64,000 nt of DNA, from positions 15,311-79,310 of the IMG/VR virus record IMGVR_UViG_3300025727_000603. One strand, written 5' to 3'. Every line of letters begins with the position of its first letter. Positions within the stretch are counted from its first letter, which is position 1. The stretch comes from a virus. Of the stretch, positions 16,801 to 37,269 are shown in pieces. A program made the position numbers and the translations under genes. The notes under the pieces were generated by a model. The model worked only from the letters and a program-made list of their open reading frames with translations, ran no database searches and was not told the DNA's origin.

Positions 16801-18405
16801 AACACCAAGATGATGAGTTTATCCGATGTAGTAATTGATACTCATATCAATAAAGACTCAACGTATATCAAAAAAGTAGTTAAAGAACTTGTATATGACT
16901 CTTTAAATCCAGCTCATTGGGATTCAAGCGTTACAAACAAATATCATGACGGAATATCGGTCACTGATGCTCATAGTGGGATGGCTTCAAATAAATACTA
17001 TCGTGCTATGAAAATGGAACTTTTAGATGGGTTTGTATCTGGTGATACTCTGACATTTCATTACCATGACGGAGAGAATTTAAAAACTATTTCCATTTCG
17101 GTTCCGGATAACGTATCAACTGGTTTAAATACAAAGGGTATATATCCGGCCGGAGTAATATCACAGGATCAATACAACGATAATCCTGAATGGAAAAAAA
17201 CAGCACGGTTTGGTGCTTCTAAATGGTTATCTCAATATCTTAAAGCAGAGTCTACCCCTGAACTCGCTACCTTTAACAGCTATTGGGATGTAACCTTCGC
17301 AACATACTATGACGGTAATGCTGATGTTGTTCCTGTTATAGTATTTACAGAGAAAAACCCTCTTTCTGTCAGTAATGAAACAAATTCACCTAACAATCAG
17401 TCACAATTGTGGAAACTTGGTCTGGAGTCTACTAACGCTGGTACTATTGCCTCTGGAAATTTTGACAATAGCAATACTGACAAAGTAGCATATAATGAGA
17501 AATGGCACAGAGATGGCAACTACAATGACGAATTTAATCAATTTGATATATCTAAGGCAAACGATAGCAGTGGAATCTATACCAAAAATAAAACACCTCA
17601 GTATGCAGACAATTATATAACATCAATAGTAAATGTGCAAATTTCTGAACCTGAAATTATTAAAGATGATTTATCAGATACTCCTAAATTATCTTTAAAT
17701 ATAGCAGGACAGACATCTACTAACCACATAGGGTCTTTCACACCATCAATAAGTGTTAATTCAAACGGCGTGGCAGAATTAACAATTACAACTAGTGAGG
17801 ATTTGACACCTTGGAAGGACGAGGGATACCTTAAATCGGCACCTAATAATACATACTCGGCAAGCGCTACCGGTCATATGACTAAAAGTACAACCCAATG
17901 GGCCAGTGGAATTTTTAGCACAGATGCCGAACCTGGTACATCAACTGACTTCAAAGCAGGTAAAATTGTTTCTCGTAATGATTCGGGTGACTTCTATGCT
18001 AATATTATGAATGGTACAGCAACTAAAGCCCGATATGCAGATTTAGCGGAAAACTATGTTGCTGATAAACAATATGAAGTTGGTACAGTATTATCCTTAG
18101 GTGGTGAATTTGAGGTTACAGAATCAGATAGGATAATGGATTCTAGAATCGTAGGAGTCGTTTCTGAAAATCCTGCATACTTAATGAATTCATATTGTAC
18201 AGGTGAATTTATAGCTACTGTAGCACTAAGAGGAAGAGTACCTGTTAAAGTAGAAGGACCAGTTGATAAAGGTGACATTATTATATCATCTGGAAGAGGT
18301 ACAGGAGTTTCTAATAATAACCCTTCATTTGGTTCTATTATAGGAAAGGCTGTAGTATCTAAAACTTCTGAAGGTACCGAGTTAATAGAGGTAGTTATCA
18401 CCTAA
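13867..18405 (+). CDS. Fibritin/neck-appendage-like fibre (1512 aa) with C-terminal intramolecular chaperone (peptidase G2-like autocleavage) domain
   Basis: N-terminal INVTESDTFNEWRLKTNEIG virion-anchor motif and coiled-coil segment LTTNAQTIALAINEVNAKI. C-terminal YADLAENY...GTVLSLGG...IVGVVSENPAYLMN...VALRGRVPVKV...KGDII...IIGKA. Confidence 0.7.
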   Translation: MVHILDKSTRINVTESDTFNEWRLKTNEIGSFIGDKHHIARYSTINYDWIPLWTDTELLNGNDENRKHPDTKVPYRKALVNIKIQGMHALESTSTEDWVAMQTETTQSIIKQEIDFGGMLTEENIRVTIKTHQPGAVNDDDRYYYGDVGTDYPYGYADNDILTIRGSSIGGVDGINDLKVKVAVTASHVNEGVTFKYISNVKISGQPINESEYGSDYITLALTKLPPASIYNELHQIRSDLAGEQENPNFIPFTKLTTNAQTIALAINEVNAKIQGTQGNLTLLKTIDDELQSIPWSKYYKQYTIDGNGNTTITDGYKIDDIVYVDPTIINDIGDTLYFKSITEYNVDNPVSRDNDGNFDRSYNLTQQGQGNLVENGVPVDSSITWFQVDSTVYSSMSLNKSLNIVNTSLGITSNNTLASLKNNHPDYTGPQDTIYHSLRNIDSYIGNYLGLKSQVYNRYVNPYRTVTLDGVATNNIDYSSIGTGDPGTIKLPTGMLLSQAFTDPNDLEYNFLPVDADKNGLYAQWTTQVTEPYQLYTKSYHPDTNVFNGFVAAADDDIVVALTKLRLRVDMLTEEIYLTKRDAGDSSAAWQWAQRITKSDQFENNFSGMHGIINILKGLEDLVSPITGDSLDRGKLSRSGFKTDYADTAGWDQSIPTGSKQEQSLTNNIYEDYDSSHVEGPLWAGSTDSDDKPLGIIAGSITRISADGGYKPQYSSDLLILRTAGVTPVDGTSHNNIDFPSTVTGTSKSADIRTLYPERIVINNGSETQVAIGYTETDRTDTNFWTNNDNTFIDHSSNPSWVWETSSGLNLLQQTATDQPMNLDVKGDIRATNKIYIGPSDNIRSIDDLYLSSGIREKEASENAPVQNIFTKPIFREGLVVHSEKPMNDWYTFTEDGRIQPDAQLLQREIEDVVGAMVTDKISATGTPSTLNMESGLNVRYDSLKADTNSGLRSPHQATLNFEVHSPDILITGDMLGNTKMMSLSDVVIDTHINKDSTYIKKVVKELVYDSLNPAHWDSSVTNKYHDGISVTDAHSGMASNKYYRAMKMELLDGFVSGDTLTFHYHDGENLKTISISVPDNVSTGLNTKGIYPAGVISQDQYNDNPEWKKTARFGASKWLSQYLKAESTPELATFNSYWDVTFATYYDGNADVVPVIVFTEKNPLSVSNETNSPNNQSQLWKLGLESTNAGTIASGNFDNSNTDKVAYNEKWHRDGNYNDEFNQFDISKANDSSGIYTKNKTPQYADNYITSIVNVQISEPEIIKDDLSDTPKLSLNIAGQTSTNHIGSFTPSISVNSNGVAELTITTSEDLTPWKDEGYLKSAPNNTYSASATGHMTKSTTQWASGIFSTDAEPGTSTDFKAGKIVSRNDSGDFYANIMNGTATKARYADLAENYVADKQYEVGTVLSLGGEFEVTESDRIMDSRIVGVVSENPAYLMNSYCTGEFIATVALRGRVPVKVEGPVDKGDIIISSGRGTGVSNNNPSFGSIIGKAVVSKTSEGTELIEVVIT

Positions 18406-19151
18406 TGATCGGTATTCTTGGTTATGGTTTTGTTGGGAAAGCAGTTGATAAAGGGTTCACAAAAACAGATAAAATAATATCGGACCCTTTATATAATGAC
18501 GTATCTATTGAAGATATGATGGATACAGAATGTATATTTGTATGCCTTCCAACACCTACAGTAAACGGTAAAATAGAAGCAACAATACTATTAAATGCAC
18601 TCAAGCATCTAGAAGAACTCGAGTACTCTGGTCTTATAATAATAAAATCTACTGTTCTTCCAGACCTAATTAAAGGGTACTCTAATAATGTAGTATGTGT
18701 ACCGGAATTCTTATCTAGAGCAACAGCTCACCATGATTTCATTAACCCTCATGTATTAATAATAGGATCAAATTCTATTGTTACATCACACCATACTTTA
18801 GCTATATTTAAGAAATATTCTGAGGTTTCCACAAAGAATGTACATCTAACAGATATAAAAACAGCTTGTATATTAAAGTATACTATGAATACCTTTAATG
18901 CCCTAAAAATAACATATTTAAACGAGATATATAAAGTATGTGGGATAGAGGGTATAGATTACAAAGAAATAGTATCTGTATTAGAGCGAGTACCGAGAAT
19001 GGGTACAGGTCTTTTTGATGTTCCTGGTCCAGATGGTAAGTATGGATTTGGTGGTCCGTGTCTTCCTAAAGATGCTGAGTCTTTTGCCTCTGCATACTCT
19101 ATGGATTTAGTAAAAGGTATATTAGAGGTTAATTCGTTATTAAGACATTAA
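18405..19151 (+). CDS. UDP-glucose/GDP-mannose 6-dehydrogenase family protein (short form)
   Basis: Rossmann GILGYGFVGKA, CLPTP, IKSTV, PEFL and catalytic GFGGPCLPKD. TAATG overlap with the fibre gene stop. Confidence 0.9.
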   Translation: MIGILGYGFVGKAVDKGFTKTDKIISDPLYNDVSIEDMMDTECIFVCLPTPTVNGKIEATILLNALKHLEELEYSGLIIIKSTVLPDLIKGYSNNVVCVPEFLSRATAHHDFINPHVLIIGSNSIVTSHHTLAIFKKYSEVSTKNVHLTDIKTACILKYTMNTFNALKITYLNEIYKVCGIEGIDYKEIVSVLERVPRMGTGLFDVPGPDGKYGFGGPCLPKDAESFASAYSMDLVKGILEVNSLLRH

Positions 19152-20128
19152 ATGTTCTATTATCAGAAGGGTGTAATCTAAACTGCTCATATTGTGGAAT
19201 GGATAAATGGTCTAAAACCACTATATCTCAAGATTCTGTAATAAATAGATTTAAAGAACTTAGACTTGAGTACCCTAATGATCGTATACGAATAGACTTT
19301 TTTGGAGGTGAACCTCTTCTCCAAATGAAGATGGTTAAGTCAATTATATCAAAGATGAAGAAAGTTGATGATAATTATACCTTAGCTATGCCTACTAATG
19401 GGATATCTCTAACACCTGGAATACTAGATTACCTAAAAAAAGAAAAAGTCTCTGTATCTCTCTCATTCGATGGCTTATGGCAAAACGATAGGAGACCTAT
19501 TAGAGATTCCAATCTATCTTCTTTAAATGTACTGTACGCTAAACGAAAATTGTTTTCTGGATTAAAATGTCATTCTATGATATCCGGATCTGACTATAAT
19601 TTACTAGAAAATCATTTATATATAACTCAAAATTTTGGGATGAATCCTGAACTAACATTAGTTAGGGATAGAGGGACATGGACACCAGAATCAGTTAAAC
19701 TTCTTCAGATCGGTATTAACGAAATTTATGAGTGGTACAAAAATAATCTCTCTGAAGATATGCCTAATTTTATATTATTCTGGCTTCGCGATATATTAAG
19801 ATATCATTATAAAGGATTTACAGTTGAAGGATGTGGTGTAGGAAGAGATCTTCATGCATTAACAGAGACTGGAGAGTCCGTTACATGTGACAGATTTGCT
19901 GGGGATAAAGAAGCAGTTGAGAAGATAAATGAGTTTTACTCTATGCCTGAATGCTCAACTTGTCGTGTAAAGAATTATTGTCATAAAGGTTGTATGTATG
20001 AACAAATTAAGTCAAATGGGCCAATCCCTGAACTTTGTGATATATATAAGTATTGTTATGATAAAACAAAAGAAATACTACCCCTGATACCTAAAGATAT
20101 AATAAGGAGAGAATTGAATGATTCATGA
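19139..20128 (+). CDS. Radical SAM/SPASM enzyme 1 (true start upstream of the listed ORF, probably ATT at 19139)
   Basis: Upstream in-frame extension KTLNVLLSEGCNLNCSYCG supplies the CxxxCxxC motif (19172-19195). Also FFGGEPLL, PTNG, SFDG and SPASM cysteines GCGVG...TCDRF...CSTCRVKNYCHKGC...LC. Confidence 0.9.
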   Translation: MKTLNVLLSEGCNLNCSYCGMDKWSKTTISQDSVINRFKELRLEYPNDRIRIDFFGGEPLLQMKMVKSIISKMKKVDDNYTLAMPTNGISLTPGILDYLKKEKVSVSLSFDGLWQNDRRPIRDSNLSSLNVLYAKRKLFSGLKCHSMISGSDYNLLENHLYITQNFGMNPELTLVRDRGTWTPESVKLLQIGINEIYEWYKNNLSEDMPNFILFWLRDILRYHYKGFTVEGCGVGRDLHALTETGESVTCDRFAGDKEAVEKINEFYSMPECSTCRVKNYCHKGCMYEQIKSNGPIPELCDIYKYCYDKTKEILPLIPKDIIRRELNDS

Positions 20129-20348
20129 TATTACTGATATTAATCAGATTAATACAAGATTATTGAAGACTGTTACACACCTGATAGATGCGTCTAAATA
20201 TCTTTCGGATATACCTGAATTTCAAGAAGAATCCTATAAAATTGCTCTTCTGGCAAAATGTTTTATTGATGTAGTCGAACCTCAAAAAGAAAAAATTACA
20301 GAAGAAACAATTAATTCTATACTAGATGAGATATTAAATGCTCAATAA
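20118..20348 (+). CDS. Hypothetical protein (76 aa, helical) between the two SPASM enzymes
   Basis: AAGGAG RBS upstream; overlaps both neighbours. Confidence 0.7.
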   Translation: MIHDITDINQINTRLLKTVTHLIDASKYLSDIPEFQEESYKIALLAKCFIDVVEPQKEKITEETINSILDEILNAQ

Positions 20349-21474
20349 TAAAAGACAACAATTTACGTTTGAAATTACAACTACTGCTCTCTGTAATATG
20401 AATTGTACATATTGCTTTGAAGGTCTAAAAACAGATAAGCGTACTTTAAACAATGTACAGGTTTCTGTATTAAAGTCTAAAATAGAGGAAATATTAAAAT
20501 CCAATTGGTTTTTAAGAGATTATGGAGTCCTTAATATATCATTTTGGGGTGGAGAACCTACATTAAATGGACCATTAATTGTTGATATGATGAATACATT
20601 CGAGCTAAATGATTCTGTAACCTATCATATATATACTAATGGACTAGATAGAAAGAAACTTGATTATGTACTTGATTCAGTATCTACAGATAAACTTGCA
20701 ATTCAGGTATCTTGGGATGGTGATGTCATTAATAAAAAGTATAGAGTTCAGGGAGTAGATAAAGATACAACTGCACGAGTACTTAATAATTTAGAGTATC
20801 TAATAGAAAGGGGTATAAACGTCTCAATGAAAGCTACAATACCTCTAGAGTCTATGGACGATATTGAAGAAACATGGGATTCATACAAAACTTTATATGA
20901 CAAATTAGGGTCTAGAGCTAATATATCTTATGCCCCTACAATAGATTATGTAAATGAATTACCTGAGGAGACCCAAGAAGCTTCAATAGCTACATTTAGA
21001 TCAGCTATGATTAGAGTAGCAAAAAAGGAATTAGAATTTTATAAAGAGCATAATCATTTTTTATGCTCTTGGTTTGACGGTAATGAGCAGAAAGTACATT
21101 GTTCCTCGGGTGCTAATATGGTTGCTATAGATGTAACGGGTAAGTCTTATGCGTGTCATGGTTCATTATATTCTCCTAATAAAGAATCAATGGGTTCAGG
21201 ATCTATAACAGATGCTGAGTGGGTTAAGAATTTAGGTTCTGAAACTAAAAAATATAAAAAGGCTATTAAAACTGTACCTGAAACATGTGTAGATTGTGTT
21301 GCAACAACTTGTATGATTTGCCCTGTATCTTCCTTAGATAATTCAAAAAAATCAGATTTTATGGATAGGTGGACTGATAGATATATAAATAATATGTGTG
21401 GGTATTTTAAAACATTTGGTGAAATAGACCGAGCGGTTGTAACCAAAATAAACAGAGAAAGAGAAGAGGCATAG
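20338..21474 (+). CDS. Radical SAM/SPASM enzyme 2
   Basis: CNMNCTYC, FWGGEPTL, YTNG, SWDG. Auxiliary cysteines HCSSG...ACHG...CVDCVATTCMICP...MC. Confidence 0.92.
   Translation: MLNNKRQQFTFEITTTALCNMNCTYCFEGLKTDKRTLNNVQVSVLKSKIEEILKSNWFLRDYGVLNISFWGGEPTLNGPLIVDMMNTFELNDSVTYHIYTNGLDRKKLDYVLDSVSTDKLAIQVSWDGDVINKKYRVQGVDKDTTARVLNNLEYLIERGINVSMKATIPLESMDDIEETWDSYKTLYDKLGSRANISYAPTIDYVNELPEETQEASIATFRSAMIRVAKKELEFYKEHNHFLCSWFDGNEQKVHCSSGANMVAIDVTGKSYACHGSLYSPNKESMGSGSITDAEWVKNLGSETKKYKKAIKTVPETCVDCVATTCMICPVSSLDNSKKSDFMDRWTDRYINNMCGYFKTFGEIDRAVVTKINREREEA
21384..21391 (+). promoter_or_regulatory. Candidate T4-type late promoter TATAAATA for the Cys-tail gene
   Basis: Exact consensus ending 86 nt before the ATG at 21478. 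It lies within the upstream CDS, so it may be chance in AT-rich DNA. Confidence 0.45.
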
Positions 21475-21477
21475 ACT

Positions 21478-22266: not shown

Positions 22267-22278
22267 GAGATGAAATAA

Positions 22279-22893
22279 ATGATGATATATAATATGGCAC
22301 TAGTGACAGATAAAGGAACACATTTTGAGATAAATGGGGTTACAACTAACGTAGCCTCTAATATAAAAAACAAAGAAGAGCACTATCTTAATCTTTCTTC
22401 AAAAGCAGCAGAAATTATTAAGGAAGCATTAAACTCTGGTAATAATAGAATTAATGTCTATAAACCATTAAAGTCTATGGAAGTTTTACCGGGAGAAGTT
22501 ATTATAGAGGATATAGATCCAGAAGATATCAGAAATGTTAAATCGTCAGAGATTAAAAGAATCAGGGTCCTAATAACACCCGAACTAGCTTCCATTTCAG
22601 GTATAGCACTCTATTCATGGATTATGCTTAATAATGAACTAAATTCTAAAGGATACTTTATATATGATGGTAATAGAGAAGAAGTATACCTAAGTATATT
22701 AGAAACTGGTGATGAAGAGCTTATTAACAAGCTGGAAGAATATTTAAATTATAAAGATGAGATTGCTAGAGTAGCTCAATTAAATTCTAAATTTTCTAAT
22801 ATTATTAAAGAAATAATGACTCTTACAGATAAAGATGAGATTATTGAGAAAGCTAACAAATTTATAGAAAATTATATGAAGTTAAATGATTAA
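22279..22893 (+). CDS. Hypothetical protein (204 aa, acidic helical C-terminal half)
   Basis: Strong AGGAG RBS and long ORF; no recognisable catalytic motif. Confidence 0.75.
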   Translation: MMIYNMALVTDKGTHFEINGVTTNVASNIKNKEEHYLNLSSKAAEIIKEALNSGNNRINVYKPLKSMEVLPGEVIIEDIDPEDIRNVKSSEIKRIRVLITPELASISGIALYSWIMLNNELNSKGYFIYDGNREEVYLSILETGDEELINKLEEYLNYKDEIARVAQLNSKFSNIIKEIMTLTDKDEIIEKANKFIENYMKLND

Positions 22894-22895
22894 TA

Positions 22896-23666
22896 ATGAG
22901 CAGGCGAATTGGTGTAGTATATAAATGGCAAATACATAATAAGATAAATGGATCTTTATTCTATGCATTTGAGTATGCAGTATACCTCAAAACTGAGCTA
23001 TACATAGTAGGAATCACAAAAGAAGATTTAAATCTAGTTAACAATATCTTCAGAGCAAAATACTCTATTTCTCCGGTGAATATTAAATCAATTAATGTAA
23101 CTAATTTATATAGCCTTGATCTCCAGAAAACTCTATTAGTTGATATTAAATCGTTCTATAATGTAAAGGAATTCCTGACAGGAGATGTTCATGTATTCTC
23201 CGATGTATCTCATCCTATGTTTAGATATAAGAATGAAAGGAGTGTAACATACTATGGATCATATGATTATCAGAATTATGATGTATTTAATTATCTTAAA
23301 TTAAACTTTTCTATATTTAAAGATATTATAAAGTCTGAAGATAAAACCTTTGTATCAGGGGTGTATCCATTCTTAGGATTCTCGAAATATCGGAATAAAG
23401 ATAATATTATAATGAAAGAACATTATGTGGGTCGTGGAGATTTATTTGAATTAATATCTTCAGTAGTATATGTACATAGCTCACGTGATACTAATAATAG
23501 AATAATTCCAGAAGCCTTTTATTACTCTAAGAAAATTAAAATCATTGAAGAACTAGAGAATATAATAGACTCTGTTACTCTTAGATATAATGATATTAAG
23601 ACTAATGGTCTTTCTAATTATACATTATCCCGTGACGATATGATGATACAAGGAATGCTAGGATGA
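22896..23666 (+). CDS. Divergent GT-B-fold glycosyltransferase-like protein A
   Basis: C-terminal DTNNRIIPE (D-x7-E) followed by AFYYSKKI; N-terminal INGSLFYAFEY loop; resembles the next gene. Confidence 0.45.
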   Translation: MSRRIGVVYKWQIHNKINGSLFYAFEYAVYLKTELYIVGITKEDLNLVNNIFRAKYSISPVNIKSINVTNLYSLDLQKTLLVDIKSFYNVKEFLTGDVHVFSDVSHPMFRYKNERSVTYYGSYDYQNYDVFNYLKLNFSIFKDIIKSEDKTFVSGVYPFLGFSKYRNKDNIIMKEHYVGRGDLFELISSVVYVHSSRDTNNRIIPEAFYYSKKIKIIEELENIIDSVTLRYNDIKTNGLSNYTLSRDDMMIQGMLG

Positions 23667-27532: not shown

Positions 27533-28092
27533 GAGTATCTATATTAATACTAACACATAATAGACCTCTCTTATTTAAGCGGTGTATTTCATCAGTATTA
27601 TTAAATAAACCAGAGAATGTAGAAATATTAGTTAATAATGATTCAAAAGATATAAAGGAGATTGCTGGTGCGACATATTATTATAAAACTCATTCGGATC
27701 TAAGTGATACTTATAAGTATCTATTTAATAAGGCCTCAGGTGAATTTATATATTTTTTAGAAGACGATGATTATGTATCTTCTGACTTTTGGAAGATACT
27801 ATCTCAGGTTAAAGAGAATACAGTATTTAGATATATCCCTGAGAAGAGTATTAAGTTATACTATGAATACTTTATACATAACCCTTCATTTGAAGAACAT
27901 TTTCAATTAGGGCAACTGGTATTTAAAAAGAAATCATTAACCTCCTTTCCAAAAGGTAATAATATACACAATGATTATCAACTATATAAATCTCTTTCGG
28001 GTTCGATAATGAATGATCGAAGACCAATTTATACACAAACTACTGATGGTAACGACAATATAAGTTTTGATGAATATCCAGAAACAATATGA
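27529..28092 (+). CDS. Glycosyltransferase family 2 (GT-A fold)
   Basis: MRVSILILTHNR...EILVNND...GEFIYFLEDDDY (DxD). Start reassigned to ATG 27529 (ATGA overlap). Confidence 0.88.
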   Translation: MRVSILILTHNRPLLFKRCISSVLLNKPENVEILVNNDSKDIKEIAGATYYYKTHSDLSDTYKYLFNKASGEFIYFLEDDDYVSSDFWKILSQVKENTVFRYIPEKSIKLYYEYFIHNPSFEEHFQLGQLVFKKKSLTSFPKGNNIHNDYQLYKSLSGSIMNDRRPIYTQTTDGNDNISFDEYPETI

Positions 28093-29907: not shown

Positions 29908-30653
29908 TAATTAACCAGCTTAAACTATATAGGCGATGGGAACGTATAATGTCTAAGGGTCATTCTCTATCTCCCACGATGTTTAGTCTAAAGAAAACAC
30001 TCTACTTTAATAATAAAGTATCAAAACTTCTATATAAAGACACAGGTGTGTTGGTTGACGTAAAATCAATTATTCCTTTAGTAAGTCATGAAAACAAGTT
30101 TACATATAATTGTGTCATTAACTCTAAAAAATATGTATTAAAGAATGAGCTACGGCGTAATATAGAATCAACTCTTATATATCAATTTTACTATTTTGAT
30201 AAATTGAAAAAGAGATATCCATTTGTTTTTGAGAGATTTAGGACAAAGGAAGATGTTCTAAAGTATAATTCGATTAAGGCAAAAGAATTAATTAATTTTA
30301 TAGGCTCCTACGAATACTCTATACAAGAACACCTTCCAGAGTTATTAGAGGAAACTGATAATTTTTTTGTATTTAAATACTATGATATTATAGAGTATTC
30401 AGAGGATGAATATAAGAATAATATGCATACCTTATTAAATATATTTAATAATGATATTGTACCTATAGTTTTAGCGCGCCAGAATGTCGCGAAGTTAGTA
30501 GACTCAGATAAGTTTATAATGTATGATATTGATATATTAAATAAAGATCCTATAATTAATTGGCCACGCGAGGGAGTTTGTACGATAGCTCCCTCTGGAA
30601 TGGATGATAACAATTGTGATGGTCTTCTCAAAATATATAAGGAGAAGAAATGA
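29904..30653 (+). CDS. Hypothetical protein, possibly degenerate kinase-like fold
   Basis: Start reassigned to ATG 29904 (ATGA overlap, AAGGA RBS). Weak kinase-like elements KYVLK, LARQN, FIMYDID. C-terminus copies that of rSAM 6. Confidence 0.55.
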   Translation: MIINQLKLYRRWERIMSKGHSLSPTMFSLKKTLYFNNKVSKLLYKDTGVLVDVKSIIPLVSHENKFTYNCVINSKKYVLKNELRRNIESTLIYQFYYFDKLKKRYPFVFERFRTKEDVLKYNSIKAKELINFIGSYEYSIQEHLPELLEETDNFFVFKYYDIIEYSEDEYKNNMHTLLNIFNNDIVPIVLARQNVAKLVDSDKFIMYDIDILNKDPIINWPREGVCTIAPSGMDDNNCDGLLKIYKEKK

Positions 30654-31528
30654 AAATACAGGTTAAATTAGCTGGTGCGGTATCTCATTATAATTTATTT
30701 AAATTATTAAAAAAATCTATTCAGAGGTATCAAGGGATATTTGATTTTACTGTTTATGATGCACCCAATCTTTGTAAATGGAATGCTGGTCGTGTAAATC
30801 GTGATATAACAATAACGCCGGAAATGGTAAGGTGGTATAATGACGCAGGGATAGGGGTGGCATTTACATTCACAAATGATATTATTGATGTCACTGATCC
30901 GGTGGGTATTGACTTATTAGAGATGCTTGATCACAATCCATTGAATTCTATAATACTAATAAACGATGACTTCAGGGAATTTTTGCGTGAGTCATACCCA
31001 AAATATAAATTAACTTTCTCTATTACTGGGCATCCGAATGATATAACTATAACAAATAAATTATTACAACATTATCTCAATTTAGAATCTAAGTATGATG
31101 TTATTGTTCCTAGATTTGAAATGACCTTTAATTCAGAATTTCTTTCGGCCATTGATTCTAAAAAATATGAACCTATAACAAATGACACTTGCATATATGG
31201 ATGTAATATATTGAGAGAGCATATGTCTACCATAGCAGATAAGAATAGGATGTATGATAACCCTTGGGTAGACATGGAACATGGTGAGGCATTTAAGGTA
31301 GAGGAGTGTTGGATAAAACATTTTGATCCTGATGTCGGGTCAGATAAAGATAGAGAAGAATATGGAGAAGAACTTGGGATGGATTTTACAAAGAGTATGT
31401 ATACAAGGGCTCTAAAATCTGGGTATCGTAGATTTAAAGTTATGGGCCGTGAACTTGGTAGTTTAGAACTTCGTACTGAAATTATAAACAATCTTAAATT
31501 ATTAAAAGAAGCATATGAAGAAATCTAA
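30650..31528 (+). CDS. Peptidase U32-like Fe-S protein (UbiU/UbiV/TrhP superfamily)
   Basis: CKWNAGR, FTFTN, NDTCIYGC..H, EECW and C-terminal GYRRFKVMGRE (cf. the U32 LKIEGR motif). Confidence 0.7.
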   Translation: MKIQVKLAGAVSHYNLFKLLKKSIQRYQGIFDFTVYDAPNLCKWNAGRVNRDITITPEMVRWYNDAGIGVAFTFTNDIIDVTDPVGIDLLEMLDHNPLNSIILINDDFREFLRESYPKYKLTFSITGHPNDITITNKLLQHYLNLESKYDVIVPRFEMTFNSEFLSAIDSKKYEPITNDTCIYGCNILREHMSTIADKNRMYDNPWVDMEHGEAFKVEECWIKHFDPDVGSDKDREEYGEELGMDFTKSMYTRALKSGYRRFKVMGRELGSLELRTEIINNLKLLKEAYEEI

Positions 31529-32369
31529 CAGTAGGATTCCTATCAGATCTGTTGAATGGTTGGTCACAGAAAATTGTAATTATACTTGTGACTATTGTGC
31601 TTTATATAACTCTAATAAGCCATCCAGAGATTTGAATGAGATAAGAAAATTTCTAATTGGGATAGCAAGGAAACAAATTATATATGACTTTACTTTTTTC
31701 GTATTCGGTGGGGAACCATTTCTTCATCCATCAATAAAAGAAATTATAGTAATGATGAATGAACTACATATTGATTATGTCTTCCAAACAAATCTTTCTA
31801 ATAAGAGTGTAAAGAAAATTACTGATATACTTGATTCTGGAGTCACGATACAGGGGATTAATATCTCTGTCCATTTCTCTCAGCAATCACTATCTCAGTA
31901 CATAAAAAATATTAGGAGTATGATAAATCTTTCTGCTAATATTAAAATAATAGATGTGATGTATGATGGGTTTTATAATGTAGAATTATATAGACAATTA
32001 GTAAAAGAATTGAAGCACTTTAAGTACTTTAATGATATAGCTATATTTCTAGTACCTGTATCTGATTTTTTGGTCACTGGATTTGGTGATCATCTTCGGG
32101 AGTATAATAAATTAGTTATTGATTCAAAGTATAATGATATTAAATTTGAAGAAGAGTTTATGGTGCATCCTATTACAGGAAAGGATACTGAACGAAGAAT
32201 TATTTGGGAAGAATTTGTAAATAAAGAATGGTCACCAAGGGGTAAAGAATGTCTTATGAAAAAGAGTTTTGAGATGTATGATTCTAATCTAAAATTATTT
32301 AATTGTTGTTTCCATGATTATATTGAGGAACCATATATTTGTCCTTATGATAAATGCTTTTTGAGTTAG
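31515..32369 (+). CDS. Radical SAM enzyme 8
   Basis: CNYTCDYC, VFGGEPFLHP, QTN, SVH; C-terminal ECL..NCC..ICPYDKC. Confidence 0.92.
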   Translation: MKKSNSRIPIRSVEWLVTENCNYTCDYCALYNSNKPSRDLNEIRKFLIGIARKQIIYDFTFFVFGGEPFLHPSIKEIIVMMNELHIDYVFQTNLSNKSVKKITDILDSGVTIQGINISVHFSQQSLSQYIKNIRSMINLSANIKIIDVMYDGFYNVELYRQLVKELKHFKYFNDIAIFLVPVSDFLVTGFGDHLREYNKLVIDSKYNDIKFEEEFMVHPITGKDTERRIIWEEFVNKEWSPRGKECLMKKSFEMYDSNLKLFNCCFHDYIEEPYICPYDKCFLS

Positions 32370-32379
32370 AGTACTGAGA

Positions 32380-33066
32380 ATGAAAAAGGAATTACTTACC
32401 TACTCATATGAACAGGGATTATCTCATATCCCATCTGCCTTATCTATGCTTGATTATGTTGACACACTATTCTCTAATAGATTAGTAACTCCAGAAGACT
32501 ATATAATAATAGGTAAACCGTTTGGATCTCAAGCATATTATCTGGTATGGGAGAAGCTTGGTTATTTAGATAATATAGAATCTCTAAGTCCTGGTCTTAA
32601 ACATGATGAAATAGATTTTGTGGATTATTCAGAAGAAACTATAGGCAATGCTCTTGGTGTAGCATCAGGTATCGCACTTACTACTGATAGACTGATATGG
32701 GTTAATATAACAGATGGAGCACTTCAAATGGGTAATACCCTAGAAGCTATACAGTTTATTGGAGCTAAATGTCAGAATAATATATTACTTACAGTTGATT
32801 ATAACGGATCTCAAGTGACAGGGAGAACGGATGATATTATTACAGTAGATCCAGTAATACAGATGCTATCTTTATATGGATGGGATGTACATTATGATAG
32901 TCTAGATAATTTTAAGATATCAAGTAAGCCGTGTGCCTTTATAATGAATACAGTAAAGGGTGATGGGGTTGATACTATGATACAGGATGAGAAGAAATGG
33001 CATTACAAGAAAATAGAAACATTGAAAGAATTACAATCGTTGGTGGTGGAACTTCAGGTTATCTAA
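32380..33066 (+). CDS. Transketolase-like, N-terminal ThDP-binding subunit
   Basis: SHIPSALS, GNALGVASGIAL, TDGALQMG..EA, VDYNGSQ, YGWDV, TVKGDG, WHY. Confidence 0.85.
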   Translation: MKKELLTYSYEQGLSHIPSALSMLDYVDTLFSNRLVTPEDYIIIGKPFGSQAYYLVWEKLGYLDNIESLSPGLKHDEIDFVDYSEETIGNALGVASGIALTTDRLIWVNITDGALQMGNTLEAIQFIGAKCQNNILLTVDYNGSQVTGRTDDIITVDPVIQMLSLYGWDVHYDSLDNFKISSKPCAFIMNTVKGDGVDTMIQDEKKWHYKKIETLKELQSLVVELQVI

Positions 33067-34238
33067 GTGCTTTATTTTTAGGTAAAACATACCCAGAGAA
33101 ATCTATTACATGGATATATCCAGAAGATAATAATCCTATAGGTGTAGGGGAGGCATTAGTACCTCCTGTATCTAAGTTCCTTTATAATTTAGGTATTTCA
33201 CATGAAGATATTCTTAAACATTGTAACGGAACATTAAAGCTTGGAATAAAACTTGAAGATTTTAGTCTGAAAGAATGTGTATTTCCTTTTGGTATTGGGG
33301 CCTCTGAAGAAAATAGTATATTAAATATAATTAAATCTAATAAGATACCTTCTAATATATTAGATTACCAAGATATATCAGTACATTTAAGAACAACAGA
33401 AGCATTAACATTTATAGAGAAGTTAATACCATCTAATGTAAGTATCTCTAGAGATAAAGTAGATAGAGTAGAGGGATATGACTTATTAGTGGATTGTACA
33501 GGATTTACTCGTAAATTTAGTTATCTTAAAGATAATCACAAATCTATATCACATATAATACCAAATAATAGAGCCTTATCTTACAGAGCGGAATATACTA
33601 ATCTCAAAGAACAAATGCTCCCGTATTCCATATTTAAAGCAATGGATTTTGGTTGGGTATGGAATATACCCTTAGGTGATCAATTAGCTATGGGATATGT
33701 ACATAATAGTAAATATGATGTCCAATCTGAGTTTATTTCTTACATTAAAGATAAAATGGGTATTATTGTAGAGAAGGATGATATTGATGAAATAGATATG
33801 GTAACCGGACGTAATAAAATACATCTTCATAATAATATAGTCCCTATAGGACTTTCATCAGGGTTTATAGAACCATTAGAATCAACTGGGTTATATCTAA
33901 CAACATACGCTCTTGAAACATTAAGTAAATATATTAACTCAGAGATATCTGAAAAACAATATAATGAATCTATTAACTCCACCTTTGATGGTATTACTGA
34001 TTTTATAGGAGCTCATTATAAGTTCTCTAATAGAGATAATGAATACTGGAATATGTATAAAGATATTGATATTAATCTATATAATGAAATAGATATATTT
34101 CCAAAGGAAGCATGGGATTATATTCTTTCTGGATTTGGTATGACCGAACGACCAAAAGAACAGTTGGATATAAAAGAGATGATAAAGATATCAAAAGGTA
34201 TAAATTACACAGAATGGTATGAGAGCAACTTTAAATAA
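32997..34238 (+). CDS. Flavin-dependent tryptophan-halogenase family protein
   Basis: IVGGGTSG, IGVGEA, GTLKLGI (catalytic Lys position), DCTGF, GWVWNIPL (WxWxIP), GFIEPLESTGL. Confidence 0.88.
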   Translation: MALQENRNIERITIVGGGTSGYLSALFLGKTYPEKSITWIYPEDNNPIGVGEALVPPVSKFLYNLGISHEDILKHCNGTLKLGIKLEDFSLKECVFPFGIGASEENSILNIIKSNKIPSNILDYQDISVHLRTTEALTFIEKLIPSNVSISRDKVDRVEGYDLLVDCTGFTRKFSYLKDNHKSISHIIPNNRALSYRAEYTNLKEQMLPYSIFKAMDFGWVWNIPLGDQLAMGYVHNSKYDVQSEFISYIKDKMGIIVEKDDIDEIDMVTGRNKIHLHNNIVPIGLSSGFIEPLESTGLYLTTYALETLSKYINSEISEKQYNESINSTFDGITDFIGAHYKFSNRDNEYWNMYKDIDINLYNEIDIFPKEAWDYILSGFGMTERPKEQLDIKEMIKISKGINYTEWYESNFK

Positions 34239-34680
34239 ATTTATAAGACGTACCGATAACACTATACTACTTCATTGTGATATGTGGGGTTTTGATTGTC
34301 CTTCAATCAATGTAGGTATACAAGAACCTAATATGGTTAATATAGCAGCTGGTCTTGCATCACAAGGTAAGAAAGTAGTTATATACGGTGTTGCTGGATT
34401 TGTATTGTATAAAGCATATGAACAAATAAAACTCAATATAAAGGGTTGGTCTGAGAACTATGGATCTATAGTATTTGTTAATGCAGGCCGTAATGGTTGT
34501 TATTCTATATGTGGTCGTGGCCACTTAGTAGAAGATGACCAAGATCTTTGTAAGGCATTAGATCTAGATTTATATACACCTGCAACAAGAAAGGAATTTC
34601 TAAGAGTTCTTAAAGAAGGACTTCAAGTAAATGGATCTAGATTTATTAGATTAGGGTATGACGGTGAGGTATGGGGATGA
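34219..34680 (+). CDS. Transketolase-like pyrimidine-binding subunit
   Basis: NVGIQEPNMVNIAAGLA, YKAYEQIK, GRGH, FIRLG; lacks the third (C-terminal) domain. Confidence 0.85.
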   Translation: MRATLNKFIRRTDNTILLHCDMWGFDCPSINVGIQEPNMVNIAAGLASQGKKVVIYGVAGFVLYKAYEQIKLNIKGWSENYGSIVFVNAGRNGCYSICGRGHLVEDDQDLCKALDLDLYTPATRKEFLRVLKEGLQVNGSRFIRLGYDGEVWG

Positions 34681-35282
34681 GATGTCTAGTTACTGGATAT
34701 AACGGATTCTTAATGAGTTATCTGATACCCTGTTTAAAGTATGATATTGTATATTATGAGGTTGATAAGGAATACAAGGATATTGATATTGTAATACATT
34801 TTGCATCACCATCAGATGATTTTGATTTCCTTGATAAATCTAAAACTGCACATAGTATGATAGATATGACTATAGAACTATTAAATATAGCTAGAAAGAA
34901 CAATGCTAAGTTTATATTCTCTTCTTCAATGGCATCTCAAGAGATTACAAATGAATACTCTGTATATAAGCTTGCAATGGAACACTATATACAAAGTACA
35001 TATAATAATCATTGTATTCTTAGAATACCAAGAGTATATGGTCAACTGAAGAAAAAGGGATTAATGAGAAAGTTTAGAGAAGATTTAGTACCTCCCTCTG
35101 ATATGAACTTATCTATAGAATATATAGACATACATGAATGGTTATTACAAACTATTCAGTACATAAAAGGTCCTTTAGGACTTTTTGAATATAACAATTT
35201 AACAATAGATACATTATATAACATTAAACATGAATATATTAATACTAGGCGGGACAGGATTTATAGGAACACATCTAGCTAG
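34677..35282 (+). CDS. NAD-dependent epimerase/dehydratase/reductase (SDR, short)
   Basis: LVTGYNGF, VIHFAS, FIFSSS, YSVYK (YxxxK), LRIPRVYG; ATGA overlap at 34677. Confidence 0.85.
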   Translation: MRCLVTGYNGFLMSYLIPCLKYDIVYYEVDKEYKDIDIVIHFASPSDDFDFLDKSKTAHSMIDMTIELLNIARKNNAKFIFSSSMASQEITNEYSVYKLAMEHYIQSTYNNHCILRIPRVYGQLKKKGLMRKFREDLVPPSDMNLSIEYIDIHEWLLQTIQYIKGPLGLFEYNNLTIDTLYNIKHEYINTRRDRIYRNTSS

Positions 35283-36129
35283 ATCATATGAAGAATCAGG
35301 TGACTCTGTAACTGTAATAGATAACTATTCTACATCAAATTCTGGTGGTCTTAAAGTACTTAAGAACATTGATATAGTCTATAATGATATAACAAAGATG
35401 GATGATTCCATACTTTACCCATATATTGGAAATGCAGATAAGATTTATTTTCTTGCAGGATCTGTTGGTGTATCTAATATAGACTCTAATCCCTATCAAA
35501 CTCTTTTGAATAATGTTGATATCTGTAGAAAACTTATCCCCCTATTTGAAAAGGCTCAGAGGCATGTAATATTCACATCATCCTCTGAAATATATGGTTC
35601 TGCTGAGTATGCATTTTCTGAAGACGATCCAGCATCTATACCCTCATCACTTAATACAAGAGGTGGGTATGCAACCTCTAAGTTATTAACAGAGTTTATG
35701 ATAACATCCTCTTCTTTTCCATATTCTATAGCACGTCTATTTAATGTAGTAGGATCTGGTCAGTTATCTAAGTATGGTATGGTCCTACCAAGATTTATTG
35801 AAAAGGCAAAAAAGAATAAACCTTTAGCTATATATGGTACAGGAGAGCAAATAAGATCATTTTGTCATGTCTCAGATGCTGTAAGTCTTCTACAAAAGAT
35901 AACACCTGAAGATAAATTAATTAATATAGGTAATTCTGAGGACCCTATTACTATGACAACACTAGCTATGTTAGTTATTAAACTTCTTCACTCAAAATCT
36001 ATAATTTCCTATAAAAATCCAAGGTCTGGTGAGATTATGTATAGAATACCCGATATGTCTATGGCAATTAATAAGTATGATTATAAACCTAGATATGATT
36101 TAGGTGATATAATAAAGGAAATGATGTGA
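35230..36129 (+). CDS. NAD-dependent nucleotide-sugar epimerase/decarboxylase (extended SDR)
   Basis: ILGGTGFIG, VIDNYST, FTSSSEIYG, YATSK, RLFNVVG, YGTGEQIRSFCHVSD. Confidence 0.9.
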   Translation: MNILILGGTGFIGTHLARSYEESGDSVTVIDNYSTSNSGGLKVLKNIDIVYNDITKMDDSILYPYIGNADKIYFLAGSVGVSNIDSNPYQTLLNNVDICRKLIPLFEKAQRHVIFTSSSEIYGSAEYAFSEDDPASIPSSLNTRGGYATSKLLTEFMITSSSFPYSIARLFNVVGSGQLSKYGMVLPRFIEKAKKNKPLAIYGTGEQIRSFCHVSDAVSLLQKITPEDKLINIGNSEDPITMTTLAMLVIKLLHSKSIISYKNPRSGEIMYRIPDMSMAINKYDYKPRYDLGDIIKEMM

Positions 36130-36767
36130 TACTTTTTATATTTGCTCACCCAGATGATGAATCGTATGGGCCATCAGGTACAATATCAAAATTATCTGAT
36201 AATAATAAAGTTGTAGTTATTTCACTATGTAAAGGTGATAAACCGCATGCAACACATGTATCTTCCGATCGAATATTAGCATTTAAAGAGTCATGTCGTC
36301 TCTTAAATGCCCAACCTATTATATTCGATCAGTCAGATTGTAATATGGATTATTCTGAAACTCTTGAAACAATTGAAACTGTTATTGAAACATACAAACC
36401 TGAAGAAGTATACACACATAATATATCAGATATACATAAGGATCATAGAATAGTATCGGAAGCTTGTATGGTAGCATGCAGACCTAAGACCCAGAGTACA
36501 GTACGTGCTCTATACATGTTAGAAATACCGTCTTCTACAGATTGGAGTTTTGGACAAATTGAACCTGTATTTGTACCAAATTATTATGTTGATGTAACAG
36601 ATAAGATAGTGCTTAAACAACGTGTAATGTCATTATATTCAACTGAACTCTATAATTACCCTGATTGCAGATCTATAGAATCTATGGAGGCCTTAGCTAT
36701 GTACCGTGGAAAGCAAGTAGGAGTACATAGGGCAGAGGCGTTTAAACAAGTATATCGTCTATGTTAA
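36126..36767 (+). CDS. PIG-L/LmbE family N-deacetylase
   Basis: FAHPDDE, YTH..D.HKDH, YYVDVT, AEAF; GTG start. Confidence 0.92.
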   Translation: MILFIFAHPDDESYGPSGTISKLSDNNKVVVISLCKGDKPHATHVSSDRILAFKESCRLLNAQPIIFDQSDCNMDYSETLETIETVIETYKPEEVYTHNISDIHKDHRIVSEACMVACRPKTQSTVRALYMLEIPSSTDWSFGQIEPVFVPNYYVDVTDKIVLKQRVMSLYSTELYNYPDCRSIESMEALAMYRGKQVGVHRAEAFKQVYRLC

Positions 36768-37269
36768 TACGTTCTGAACCATAAAAGTCAGTAAAGCCGT
36801 ATGATTTTGAGAGTATTGCCTTATATAGACCATCAAGATCATCATTATAAGGAAAACAGAATGATGTAGGTACTGAGTTAAAATATTTTAACCAGAATTC
36901 TAACATTTCATCTGTATCTTGTTTTATCCAAGATATCTTATCTACTAATCTCTCAAACTTATTAAGATTTTGATGATAATGTGAATGGGCTCCAAGAGGT
37001 AATTCAAGCATTTGATCAAGAGTCATATAATTTTCCATATTACCCCTAAATGCTTCTTTATGAGCATTTCCACATGTTATAAATCTAGAGGATTGTATTG
37101 ACTTCTCTGGACAAATAATTCCAGACGATATAAAGAATATCTTTTGATTCTTAAGATGTCTTGCATATTCATATTGTGTGTATAGACCATCATCAAACGT
37201 TAAAAATAGATTTGGATCTATTATAAGAGGCTTTCTTAATTCGTGTATCATTAGGGTCTTATTAGTCAT
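36742..37269 (-). CDS. NodB-type polysaccharide deacetylase domain protein
   Basis: LTFDDG, GAHSHYH, FCFPY motifs. It is the only credible minus-strand gene. Confidence 0.85.
   Translation of the reverse strand: MTNKTLMIHELRKPLIIDPNLFLTFDDGLYTQYEYARHLKNQKIFFISSGIICPEKSIQSSRFITCGNAHKEAFRGNMENYMTLDQMLELPLGAHSHYHQNLNKFERLVDKISWIKQDTDEMLEFWLKYFNSVPTSFCFPYNDDLDGLYKAILSKSYGFTDFYGSERINIDDILV

Follow-up and report, generated by a model that had tools for sequence, protein, structure and literature searches.

In Methanococcus voltae, the SPASM radical S-adenosylmethionine (SAM) enzyme CrpC cross-links the 28.8-kDa Cys-repeat protein CrpA, and the resulting ranthionine (thioether) was detected by mass spectrometry (MS) (Dieter et al., 2026, PMC13692751). 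A second enzyme, NxxcB, forms Cys-Asn beta-thioethers in NxxC motifs (PMC9389541). Among phage proteins, S74 is a self-cleaving chaperone-protease that enforces the trimerisation of spikes and fibres (PMC10769870), and soluble glycosyltransferases (GTs) encoded near the structural genes of mycobacteriophages decorate the C-terminal ends of virion proteins, yielding capsid and tail-tube glycans (Freeman et al., 2023, as cited in PMC12619734). Campylobacter group II phages (Firehammervirus, with CP220, CPt10, CP21, and IBB_35) carry 11–12 radical-SAM genes and an interchangeable central module that includes five of them and an amidinotransferase (Timms et al., 2010, PMC2853527). Here, we analyzed an island of radical-SAM and sugar genes (18405–37269) in a 64,000-nucleotide stretch of viral DNA, referred to as the window, which represents positions 15311–79310 of the 79,310-bp linear IMG/VR virus record IMGVR_UViG_3300025727_000603 (~35% complete by CheckV). 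We propose, with about even confidence, that this island is a maturation system, performing cross-linking and perhaps glycosylation, for the Cys-repeat fibre-type protein encoded at 21478–22266.

The island contains 24 open reading frames (ORFs), 23 on the plus strand and one on the minus strand. Overlaps were found at 20 of 24 junctions, including the one with the stop of the upstream fibre gene, and the remaining gaps measure 2–12 nt. The first island ATG and the fibre-gene stop have one base in common, reading ...ACC TAA TG.... The G+C content of the island is ~0.30, compared to 0.34–0.38 in the flanks, where T4-type structural genes encode a baseplate wedge fragment, giant fibre-like ORFs, tail-fibre and fibre assembly proteins, PAAR, and gp13/gp14-like neck proteins. 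An earlier reading of this DNA, made from its letters only and hereafter called the sequence-only reading, had described about 24 mostly overlapping genes, coupled by TAATG to the fibre stop and placed among virion structural genes on both sides, and each of these points was borne out.

A Cys-repeat protein and its probable SPASM partners

The C-terminal tail of the product of ORF 21478–22266 consists of four CxC[ND]xx hexads followed by NYTQ, which corresponds to the Cys-tailed protein of the sequence-only reading. We compared it with those of related phages, designated G001 to G006, of which G001 and G002 are sisters of the window phage. Diverged homologues in G003, G004, and G005 match Peptidase_S74 (PF13884) at 28.6–40.9 bits (cut-off 22), and their S74 domain, beginning SDxxLKxxI, starts at the residue right after the end of the ...CxCNY repeat. 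The window ORF does not have the C-terminal S74 domain of Peptidase_S74 fibre/spike proteins; its stop coincides with the predicted mature end after S74 cleavage, and it is best read as a natural S74-less form of an S74-linked family. Homologues are small (150–290 aa), and the family alignment shows a common architecture along its length: an N-terminal motif with Cys, a conserved helix, and another helix ahead of the repeat, with a variable middle. Between the window and G002, the ratio of nonsynonymous to synonymous substitution rates (dN/dS) of the Cys-repeat gene (0.83) was like that of the upstream fibre gene (0.80), with 0.08–0.25 for the flanking enzymes and 0.72 for one poorly diverged radical-SAM gene. 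Given that homologues have Peptidase_S74 directly after the repeat and that the gene evolves in a fibre-like manner, assignment of the Cys-tailed ORF to a fibre-type family is supported. With the whole protein as query, only itself and the G002 copy were retrieved, its N-terminal part evolving too rapidly to be followed by sequence searches. A degenerate IUPAC DNA pattern for the repeat, searched against IMG/VR, gave 82 matches, most of which were wrong-frame repeat DNA and ~20 of which were real.

The repeat differs by lineage, occurring as CxCNxx hexads, CTCNCNY heptads, or CHSN units, with the enzyme pairing maintained. In the G001 copy, the N-terminal 140 residues were swapped out and the Cys tail was retained. 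At one locus (L149, ~8139–8642), four-residue C-H-S-[ND] units stand in place of the CxCN hexads, and their Cys-His pairs may point to metal binding. A predicted trimer of three copies of the Cys-repeat protein scored 0.00, with the fold of the partner itself uncertain, which is evidence neither way.

Two radical-SAM/SPASM genes with a gene for a 76-aa protein between them precede the Cys-repeat gene. Enzyme 1 has a canonical Cx2Cx5Cx3C SPASM motif (CSTCRVKNYCHKGC) and enzyme 2 a C-terminal variant (CVDCVATTCMIC). PapB (NF047865) is the top family of enzyme 1, matched over the full length at 98.7 bits, and enzyme 2 is likewise PapB-like over its full length at 77.5 bits, both below the 340-bit cut-off for this ranthipeptide maturase; against the CrpC family TIGR04463, enzyme 2 scored 31.6 bits (cut-off 525). 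The nearest solved structure to enzyme 1 is that of CteB (5wgg; E = 5e-13, over CteB residues 95–420, which leaves out its N-terminal RRE). The CxxxCxxC motif lies at residues 12 and 19 in enzymes 1 and 2, which leaves no room for a recognition element (RRE) of the kind found in maturation systems for peptides made by ribosomes and modified post-translationally (RiPPs). No ATG, GTG, or TTG is found upstream of CxxxCxxC in enzyme 1. An ATT at 19139, with AGAGGT 9 nt ahead of it, is in exact register with the ATG at which the G003 and G006 orthologues start, and G001 and G002 retain this ATT. Given this alignment and the position of CxxxCxxC upstream of the first ATG, enzyme 1 probably starts at ATT 19139; if read from upstream of its ATG, it matches Pfam Radical_SAM at 51.4 bits. 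The 76-aa protein had no match in family searches (Pfam, NCBIfam, PHROGs) and is kept in G001, G003, G006, and a Peredibacter genome at 33–55% identity.

In a census of 39 IMG/VR loci with a full-length enzyme 2 homologue, a Cys-repeat ORF was found beside this homologue in 36, directly downstream in 33 of them. In three Firehammervirus records (CP220, CPt10, and CP21, with a partial enzyme-2 match), the Cys-repeat gene lies ~3 kb upstream, and the last three loci comprise two without a Cys-repeat ORF and one that is incomplete. Other Cys-repeat families (L074, L090, and L053) likewise adjoin SPASM enzymes. Whether a Cys-tail ORF accompanies such islands had been proposed as a check by the sequence-only reading, and the association was recovered. 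Given that the pairing persists across loci and that NxxcB and CrpC provide precedents, we infer by analogy that cross-linking of the Cys repeat by the SPASM pair is the most economical reading, and cross-linking of a fibre-type protein is well supported by gene context.

In the first step of such a pathway, the two RRE-less SPASM enzymes, perhaps together with the 76-aa protein, would act on the four C-terminal CxC[ND]xx hexads. By analogy, the products would most probably be thioether links, in which Cys sulfur would be joined to a carbon in the side chain of Asn or Asp; each hexad boundary yields NxxC or DxxC spacing, as used by NxxcB. In a second step, the repeat would in most relatives end the mature protein after S74-aided trimer folding and self-cleavage, and the modified repeat would then form the end, exposed or stapled, of a trimeric, fibre-like protein that joins the virion. 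The island would resemble RiPP maturation in operation, but it does not look like a usual RiPP cluster: the candidate substrate is a 262-aa protein, and family searches of the island identified no RRE, protease, or transporter family.

The same repeat could be read differently, as a metal-binding or disulfide motif of a trimeric fibre without any enzymatic cross-link, with the SPASM enzymes acting elsewhere or delivering Fe-S clusters or metal. The needle of T4 gp37 has His-x-His (HxH) iron sites, and the strict 6-residue period of the hexads similarly puts paired Cys two residues apart, while the Asn after each CxC could form a beta-helix Asn ladder instead of serving as cross-link acceptor. 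A metal-binding role was also suggested for CrpA by its authors (PMC13692751). However, the repeat gene lies beside SPASM genes in nearly all census loci and in several independent repeat families, and SPASM enzymes of the PapB, CteB, and CrpC kind are known to act on such Cys motifs, so we regard this explanation as improbable.

Placement and motifs connect the Cys-repeat gene to the fibre genes as well. The last ~150 residues of the upstream fibre (~17956–18402; ...ARYADLAENY...) make up a conserved domain found ahead of the island in many phages, including 24 of 39 census loci. This domain is 91% identical in G001 and 38–42% identical in G003, G005, and G006, in each case with the island directly after it, and is common to gp036 of the Firehammervirus CP220 (39% identity). 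In CP220, a 534-aa protein (160932–162536) has six CTCDCNY heptads and further CxCN units; its gene adjoins a homologue of the transketolase pyrimidine-binding (Pyr) half, lies near an enzyme-2 homologue, and is conserved in all 15 of the 15 Firehammervirus records. The orthologue in phage IBB_35 is the product of gene 3-9 (60,318 Da; 60,317 Da computed here), which Carvalho et al. (2012, PMC3322345) list, at a coverage of 2.6%, as detected by MS in virions.

The T4 late-promoter core, TATAAATA, occurs in 10 plus-strand copies in the window, five of which are in the 1.8% of DNA that is intergenic. Intergenic copies precede the fibre gene (13716), 37323, 46700, and the neck gene, and two copies 10 nt apart (37269–37286) are located in the 53-nt gap between the divergent NodB gene and the fibre-assembly-like gene at 37323. 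In addition to the copy within enzyme 2 (Table 1), the orthologous Cys-repeat genes of G001, G003, and G006 are preceded by one at a distance of 87–250 nt, which places the motif ahead of this gene in two lineages; the whole G003 and G006 contigs have no other copy on that strand. A terminator scan from the fibre gene to the island revealed none that was convincing, with one weak hairpin (18990–19006) and sites no more frequent than in shuffled sequence, and sigma-70-like promoters were not enriched. By its motifs, this arrangement would be consistent with late transcription and with stronger expression of the Cys-repeat gene. One metatranscriptome run (X14) contained three 200-nt contigs, from enzyme 1, the Cys-repeat gene, and the radical-SAM gene at 24600, which are too few to show transcription or its timing and could reflect DNA carry-over; stretches without RNA coverage are uninformative.

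Table 1. Features of the island and of the preceding fibre gene, with window coordinates
Feature	Coordinates	Strand	Remarks
T4-late-promoter-like TATAAATA	13716..13723	+	in gap before fibre gene
Fibre gene, 1512 aa	13867..18405	+	PHROG 22593/6427 match at residues 1373-1506
Short NDP-sugar dehydrogenase-like, 248 aa	18405..19151	+	Pfam UDPG_MGDP_dh N and central domains
Radical SAM/SPASM enzyme 1	19139..20128	+	probable ATT start; CNLNCSYC upstream of first ATG
76-aa protein	20118..20348	+	between SPASM enzymes
Radical SAM/SPASM enzyme 2	20338..21474	+	Pfam Radical_SAM 48.5 bits; census anchor gene
TATAAATA within enzyme 2	21384..21391	+	94 nt upstream of Cys-repeat gene
Cys-repeat fibre-type protein, 262 aa	21478..22266	+	repeat at 22189-22251; ORF end ...CNYTQ
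204-aa conserved protein	22279..22893	+	PHROG 25260; 34% identical to CP220 gp015
256-aa conserved protein	22896..23666	+	generically Rossmann-like
GT-B-fold protein, 318 aa	23663..24619	+	AF2 model pLDDT 86.5
Radical SAM enzyme, most conserved island gene	24600..25646	+	Pfam 73 bits
Radical SAM enzyme, Cys-rich C-terminus	25633..26694	+	Pfam 42.6 bits; PHROG 24890 E 3e-56; CKPCTSAYCSYNC motif
Radical SAM enzyme	26687..27532	+	Pfam 38.7 bits; family triplicated in relatives
GT2 glycosyltransferase, 199 aa	27493..28092	+	Pfam Glycos_transf_2 38.3 bits
Radical SAM enzyme	28067..29017	+	Pfam 44.4 bits; 57% identical in G004, 69% in Bdellovibrionales MAG
Radical SAM enzyme	28990..29907	+	Pfam 40.1 bits; CNLRCEYC motif
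263-aa protein	29862..30653	+	no Pfam, NCBIfam or PHROGs match
292-aa protein	30650..31528	+	no Pfam, NCBIfam or PHROG match; 39% identical in Bdellovibrionales MAG
Radical SAM enzyme	31515..32369	+	Pfam 39.1 bits; CNYTCDYC motif
Transketolase-like ThDP-binding half	32380..33066	+	Transketolase_N 22.1 bits (cut-off 22); NCBIfam E 1e-11
Flavin-dependent halogenase-like gene	32997..34238	+	Pfam Trp_halogenase (PF04820) 218 bits, cut-off 21
Transketolase-like pyrimidine-binding half	34219..34680	+	Transket_pyr 19.6 bits (cut-off 27); NCBIfam E 1e-3
Short SDR/epimerase-like, 203 aa	34671..35282	+	Pfam Epimerase 40.3 bits, partial; 28% identical to CP220 gp012
Full-length NAD-dependent sugar epimerase/dehydratase	35230..36129	+	Pfam Epimerase 128 bits; 96% identical in G001
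PIG-L family deacetylase	36126..36767	+	Pfam PIG-L 71.5 bits; CP220 gp157 homologue
NodB-type polysaccharide deacetylase	36742..37269	-	PHROG 26430 E 3e-27; 35% identical to CP220 gp156
NDP, nucleoside diphosphate; AF2, AlphaFold2; pLDDT, predicted local distance difference test; MAG, metagenome-assembled genome; ThDP, thiamine diphosphate; SDR, short-chain dehydrogenase/reductase.

Sugar enzymes and the other radical-SAM genes

The gene families that the sequence-only reading had named were mostly recovered (Table 1): the eight CxxxCxxC radical-SAM enzymes, a GT2, a halogenase-like flavoenzyme, two SDRs (one a partial and one a full Pfam Epimerase match), and the PIG-L and NodB deacetylases. 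CxxxCxxC is present at residues 12–34 in all eight radical-SAM proteins, and seven of them match PF04055 at 38.7–73.3 bits (cut-off 29.5), so that, with enzyme 1 read from upstream of its ATG, all eight belong to the superfamily. Beyond the canonical SPASM motif of enzyme 1, motif variants were detected in enzyme 2 and in the enzyme at 25633, and the other five have 5–7 C-terminal Cys at non-canonical spacing; the Pfam SPASM model matched none of the window proteins and one enzyme of the G001 module. The most conserved island gene, at 24600, is 45% identical to CP220 gp163, and the solved structures closest to its product are those of BlsE (7vob; E = 4e-13) and viperin-like enzymes. Homologues of its product fall in 416 metagenome protein clusters at E <= 1e-10, some on contigs of up to 331 kb, indicating that the system is widespread. 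The enzyme at 26687 has three paralogues each in CP220, G005, G006, and Peredibacter. In G004 (L109:1700–3154), a 485-aa ORF has a GT2 domain (residues 3–90) fused to a radical-SAM domain (210–312), which suggests a functional link of the GT2 to enzymes of the 28067 type.

Three further assignments needed adjustment. The predicted UDP-sugar dehydrogenase keeps the GYGFVG (GxGxxG) and GGPCLPKD (GGxCxxKD) motifs and scores 117 bits against TIGR03026 (cut-off 190), but the C-terminal UDP-binding domain of UDP-glucose/GDP-mannose dehydrogenases is absent from the 18405–19151 product. Given that all relatives have this short form, as does CP220 (gp019), this gene is not a fragment. Of the two GT-B-like proteins that had been proposed, the 318-aa protein stands: its top Foldseek matches are all GT-B, and its AF2 model superimposes on the GT4 enzymes BshA, PimA, HepE, TarM, GtfA, and SdgB with Z 15–16 and a root-mean-square deviation of 3.6–3.9 A over ~265 residues. 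UDP-GlcNAc 2-epimerases have this fold too (Z 14), and the 318-aa protein, which is 32% identical to CP220 gp184, is a probable glycosyltransferase by its model. The second candidate, the 256-aa protein, reached at best Z 8.3, to generic Rossmann domains, with a model of pLDDT 68.5, and falls in virus-dominated Atlas clusters of hypothetical proteins; profile searches of both proteins against PDB sequences returned nothing below E 0.1. The U32-like label given to the 292-aa protein (30650–31528) could not be secured, as the sole lead to U32 (PF01136) was one Atlas cluster with Peptidase_U32 in 20% of its members.

For the split transketolase, candidate N and Pyr halves were both recognized and are conserved in G004; their Pfam scores are at or under cut-off, and no C-terminal domain was found for them in Pfam and NCBIfam searches. 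The N half is 65% identical in G004 and 37% identical to CP220 gp072; the Pyr half is 88% identical in G004 and 43% identical to the CP220 ORF at 160309–160770, which sits beside the CP220 Cys-repeat gene. Between the halves lies the halogenase gene, with the family motifs GGGTSG (GxGxxG) at residue 16, KLGI at 81, and WVWNIP (WxWxIP) at 220. This gene is missing from relatives. Given that the halves are adjacent in G004 and that in one seawater contig 33051 is followed by 'TT' and then by 34220 (weak evidence, with 25 letters on the shorter side), the halogenase gene appears to be an optional insertion. The possibility that the short dehydrogenase and SDR and the two transketolase halves are pseudogenes was rejected, as the short forms are conserved across phages and dN/dS is 0.15 for the dehydrogenase. 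The full-length epimerase is homologous to CP220 gp158. The 204-aa protein is syntenic in G001, G003–G006, and Peredibacter; we rejected it as a candidate virion protein, as its IBB_35 orthologue (26,976 Da) is missing from the published virion list.

In a third and more tentative step of the proposed pathway, the GT-B protein, the GT2, the short dehydrogenase, the SDRs, both deacetylases, the pair of transketolase halves, and the remaining six SPASM/twitch-like radical-SAM enzymes would make an unusual sugar-derived group that would be attached to the Cys-repeat protein or to another virion protein. That both parts form one system is suggested by the sugar enzymes and GTs traveling with the Cys-repeat gene in G003–G006, in CP220 (where they are scattered), and in two Bdellovibrio-like genomes, where phage structural genes do not occur close by.

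Dehydrogenases, SDRs, deacetylases, GT2, and GT-B proteins are also typical of surface-polysaccharide loci, and sugar genes of this type are often carried by T4-like marine phages. The island could thus be imagined to remodel host surface glycans, such as lipopolysaccharide (LPS), capsule, or flagellin sugars, blocking superinfection or reducing the sticking of progeny to debris, comparable to the 'LPS genes' of cyanophages. However, the island includes no initiating transferase, flippase, polymerase, or membrane protein. No membrane segments were predicted in any island protein, which makes an LPS or capsule assembly line unlikely. Host-glycan remodelling would also leave eight radical-SAM enzymes and the Cys-repeat protein without a role, and the same set is kept in phages differing in G+C content and habitat, with hosts mostly unknown. 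We consider this reading very unlikely.

Module exchange, bacterial islands and the weight of evidence

Marine metagenomes of several studies contain near-identical DNA, and no near-identical DNA to the island was found among 50,697 phage records. The window has 18007–26636 and the region from 35233 onward in common with G001, with unrelated 8.5-kb middles: DNA similarity ends at 26636 and resumes at ~35233 (compared to L003:12040–20388). The two sister phages are otherwise 87–97% identical, and the N-terminal part of the Cys-repeat protein is swapped too. Only two types were seen, and therefore co-variation of the middle module with the Cys-repeat N-terminus is not established. The alternative middle, found in G001, G005, CP220 (gp084–gp088, syntenic with G001), and Peredibacter, encodes pentein/amidinotransferase-like, DegT-type and class I/II aminotransferase, P-loop, and GT-A proteins. 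The name amidinotransferase for the 355-aa ORF of G001 rests on 40% identity to CP220 gp086, annotated as Pentein / possible glycine amidinotransferase; the ORF had been tried as an amidinotransferase by Pfam and gave no match at E <= 0.001. In more distant relatives (G003/G006, G004, and G005; 30–55% identity, G+C 0.29–0.40), sugar enzymes, GTs, and radical-SAM enzymes remain in one cluster with the Cys-repeat gene, and in G005 and the G003/G006 type the cluster is directly behind the conserved fibre C-terminal domain. The exchangeable middle and the optional halogenase would vary the decoration between strains.

The structural region flanking the island includes ORFs of 4335, 1512, and 3317 aa, the two giant ones at 631–13638 (4335 aa) and 52665–62618 (3317 aa). 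Parts of the 4335-aa ORF are 25–46% identical to giant ORFs of G001, G003, and G006. The neck protein of the window is ~40% identical to those of pelagimyophages, cyanomyophages, and one Stenotrophomonas phage.

In a scan of one genome per prokaryote species, two bacteria proved to have the island: Peredibacter sp. HCB2-198, on its complete chromosome (NZ_CP174607.1, ~1,270.6–1,287.7 kb), and a Bdellovibrionales MAG. The Peredibacter island (L194, L201–L204) has eight radical-SAM genes at 40–51% identity and a G+C content of 0.38–0.40 compared to 0.425 in its flanks. Its neighbors are respiratory-chain-like and pilin-like genes, and no homologues of window structural genes were found within 30 kb. 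In the Peredibacter Cys-repeat gene, the S74 part is out of frame with the repeat part (by frameshift, sequencing error, or decay), and no signal peptide was found on its protein. Given that this island is without virion genes, the enzymes seem tied to the Cys-repeat protein and not to virions as such, which strengthens the notion of one system with one substrate and weakens a DNA-modification reading. The fibre context anticipated by the sequence-only reading held in the census loci where the fibre C-terminal domain precedes the island, but not in Peredibacter. Likewise, its proposal of a post-translational modification pathway for the virion held in part: a fibre-type substrate and its cross-linking are favored by context (S74, dN/dS, the IBB_35 list, and the 36 of 39 linkage), while the same island exists in a bacterium without virion genes.

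The bacterial island also bears on the possibility that two systems share the locus, in which the SPASM pair would mature the Cys-repeat protein and the sugar enzymes, the GTs, the aminotransferase or amidinotransferase modules, and most of the radical-SAM enzymes would make a soluble sugar-derived small molecule used in infection, resembling an aminocyclitol, an aminoglycoside, or a nucleoside sugar and directed against competitors or altering host metabolism. Such a product would be consistent with a chromosomal island devoid of virion genes, with the amidinotransferase-like, aminotransferase, P-loop, and GT-A genes of the alternative middle, and with the closeness of the 24600 enzyme to BlsE, whose substrate is a nucleoside sugar. 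A similar trio in cyanophage S-SCSM2R was interpreted as antibiotic-synthesis genes by the authors reporting it (PMC12801897). On the other hand, the island has no transporter, resistance gene, or regulator and no membrane segments, its place within the late structural operon is conserved, and the sugar genes are linked to the Cys-repeat gene across phages at 30–55% identity and into bacteria. We judge the two-system explanation unlikely, though it deserves serious consideration.

A further possibility is hypermodification of phage DNA by the sugar and radical-SAM genes, such as glycosylation or another decoration of bases, with their location among fibre genes due to chance insertion. GT-B is also the fold of the T4 DNA glucosyltransferases. 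Firehammerviruses, with ~14 genes in common with the island, have fully modified DNA (dG to 7-amido-7-deazaguanine), and several of the CP220 homologues neighbour thyX, nrdB, tk, and a clamp-loader gene; according to work cited in PMC12619734, glycosylation of DNA by phage GTs is frequent. Homologous clusters located with DNA-replication or modification genes and correlated with modified bases were what the sequence-only reading had named as evidence against itself. However, the CP220 homologues are scattered, with others among structural genes, so that adjacency to nucleotide-metabolism genes says little and this neighbourhood does not settle the target. The 7-deazaguanine pathway, with DpdA3, accounts for the modified base of CP220. 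Family searches of the 24 island proteins found no DNA-binding family and no hydroxymethylase, DpdA-type DNA transglycosylase, or DNA kinase (the genome being ~35% recovered), and the genes are tied to a fibre-type protein even in a bacterial chromosome. DNA modification is quite improbable on these grounds.

Several observations weigh against our proposal of a maturation system for the Cys-repeat protein. The virion evidence consists of one gel-MS entry of older date, with 2.6% coverage, for a distantly related phage that has a different repeat (CTCDCNY heptads); architecture and context, and no significant alignment, connect the CP220-type protein to that of the window. The same published list does not include the IBB_35 orthologue of the neighbouring 204-aa protein. 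All scores against the curated maturase families are far under their cut-offs, thioether formation is an analogy, and eight to eleven radical-SAM enzymes seem to exceed the apparent need of four hexads. The 24600 enzyme is nearest to nucleoside-sugar and nucleotide enzymes (BlsE, viperins), and the GT-B fold, being shared with DNA glucosyltransferases, means that the sugar branch could serve another target. Finally, given the Peredibacter island, the Cys-repeat protein may have a virion-independent role. Among the competing explanations, we give most weight to a soluble sugar product, followed by a metal-binding or disulfide motif, DNA modification, and host-glycan remodelling. As a tentative generalization, possible but not one we would lean on, many large T4-like phages and some Bdellovibrio-like predators would staple and glycosylate a trimeric fibre tip by radical-SAM thioether chemistry, which until now was known from peptide antibiotics, with exchangeable modules diversifying the decoration.

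Comparison with known systems

In the literature searched, we found no description of radical-SAM cross-linking or decoration of a phage structural protein. If our proposal is true, dedicated radical-SAM enzymes serve phages to cross-link and decorate a structural protein, and RiPP-type chemistry extends to virion proteins. Fibre tips could then vary via enzyme modules beyond their sequence, providing post-translational control of host range or stability. The radical-SAM set of Campylobacter phages (11–12 genes in phages used for biocontrol), unexplained since 2010, would also gain a function. Cultured systems with the gene set exist in the Firehammerviruses and in Peredibacter sp. HCB2-198.

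Similar to the window, the CrpC/CrpA system has a SPASM gene beside a protein-sized partner with a C-terminal Cys repeat. However, CrpC has an RRE and belongs to TIGR04463, whereas the window enzymes have no room for an RRE, and CrpA has a 17-residue repeat with CxxQ/D in an archaeon, with no fibre, S74, or sugar context. PapB/PapA, CteB/SCIFF, and NxxcB/NxxcA are comparable in that PapB and CteB are the top matches of enzyme 1 and that NxxC spacing recurs in the hexad tail; their substrates are short secreted peptides with leaders, in contrast to the candidates described here, proteins of 167–286 aa, for which no leader, protease, or exporter was seen. S74 fibres and spikes and the MAT fibres of Bdellovibrio (K1F endosialidase, T5 pb1, and Bd3182; PMC10769870) resemble the Cys-repeat homologues that end in S74, but Cys-repeat proteins are small, and the window copy is without S74. 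That study describes neither a Cys repeat nor enzymes dedicated to modification for K1F, T5 pb1, and Bd3182.

The glycosylation of mycobacteriophage virions, as cited above, differs in that no radical-SAM enzymes are involved there, and in the window phage glycosylation is only proposed. The halogenase-like gene is 27–35% identical to genes annotated as halogenases in cyanophages (e.g., as 'tryptophan halogenase' in Syn10 and syn9), pelagiphages, and the Campylobacter phage CP21, and is distinguished by its insertion between the transketolase halves.

Gene content is shared with CP220, where ~14 island genes have homologues at 25–45% identity. These include the short dehydrogenase, both SPASM enzymes, the 204-aa protein, the GT-B protein, the radical-SAM enzyme at 24600, and the 26687 family (three copies), as well as both transketolase halves, both SDRs, PIG-L, and NodB. 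In CP220 they are scattered over a 177-kb genome, whereas the window has them in a single 19-kb block that follows a fibre gene; the CTCDCNY heptads of CP220 are in a 534-aa protein and the hexads of the window in a 262-aa protein. Host and habitat are different as well, with Firehammerviruses from chicken gut and the window phage from sea water. CP220 and CPt10 differ from each other in the same way as the window and G001, by an interchangeable multi-radical-SAM middle module.

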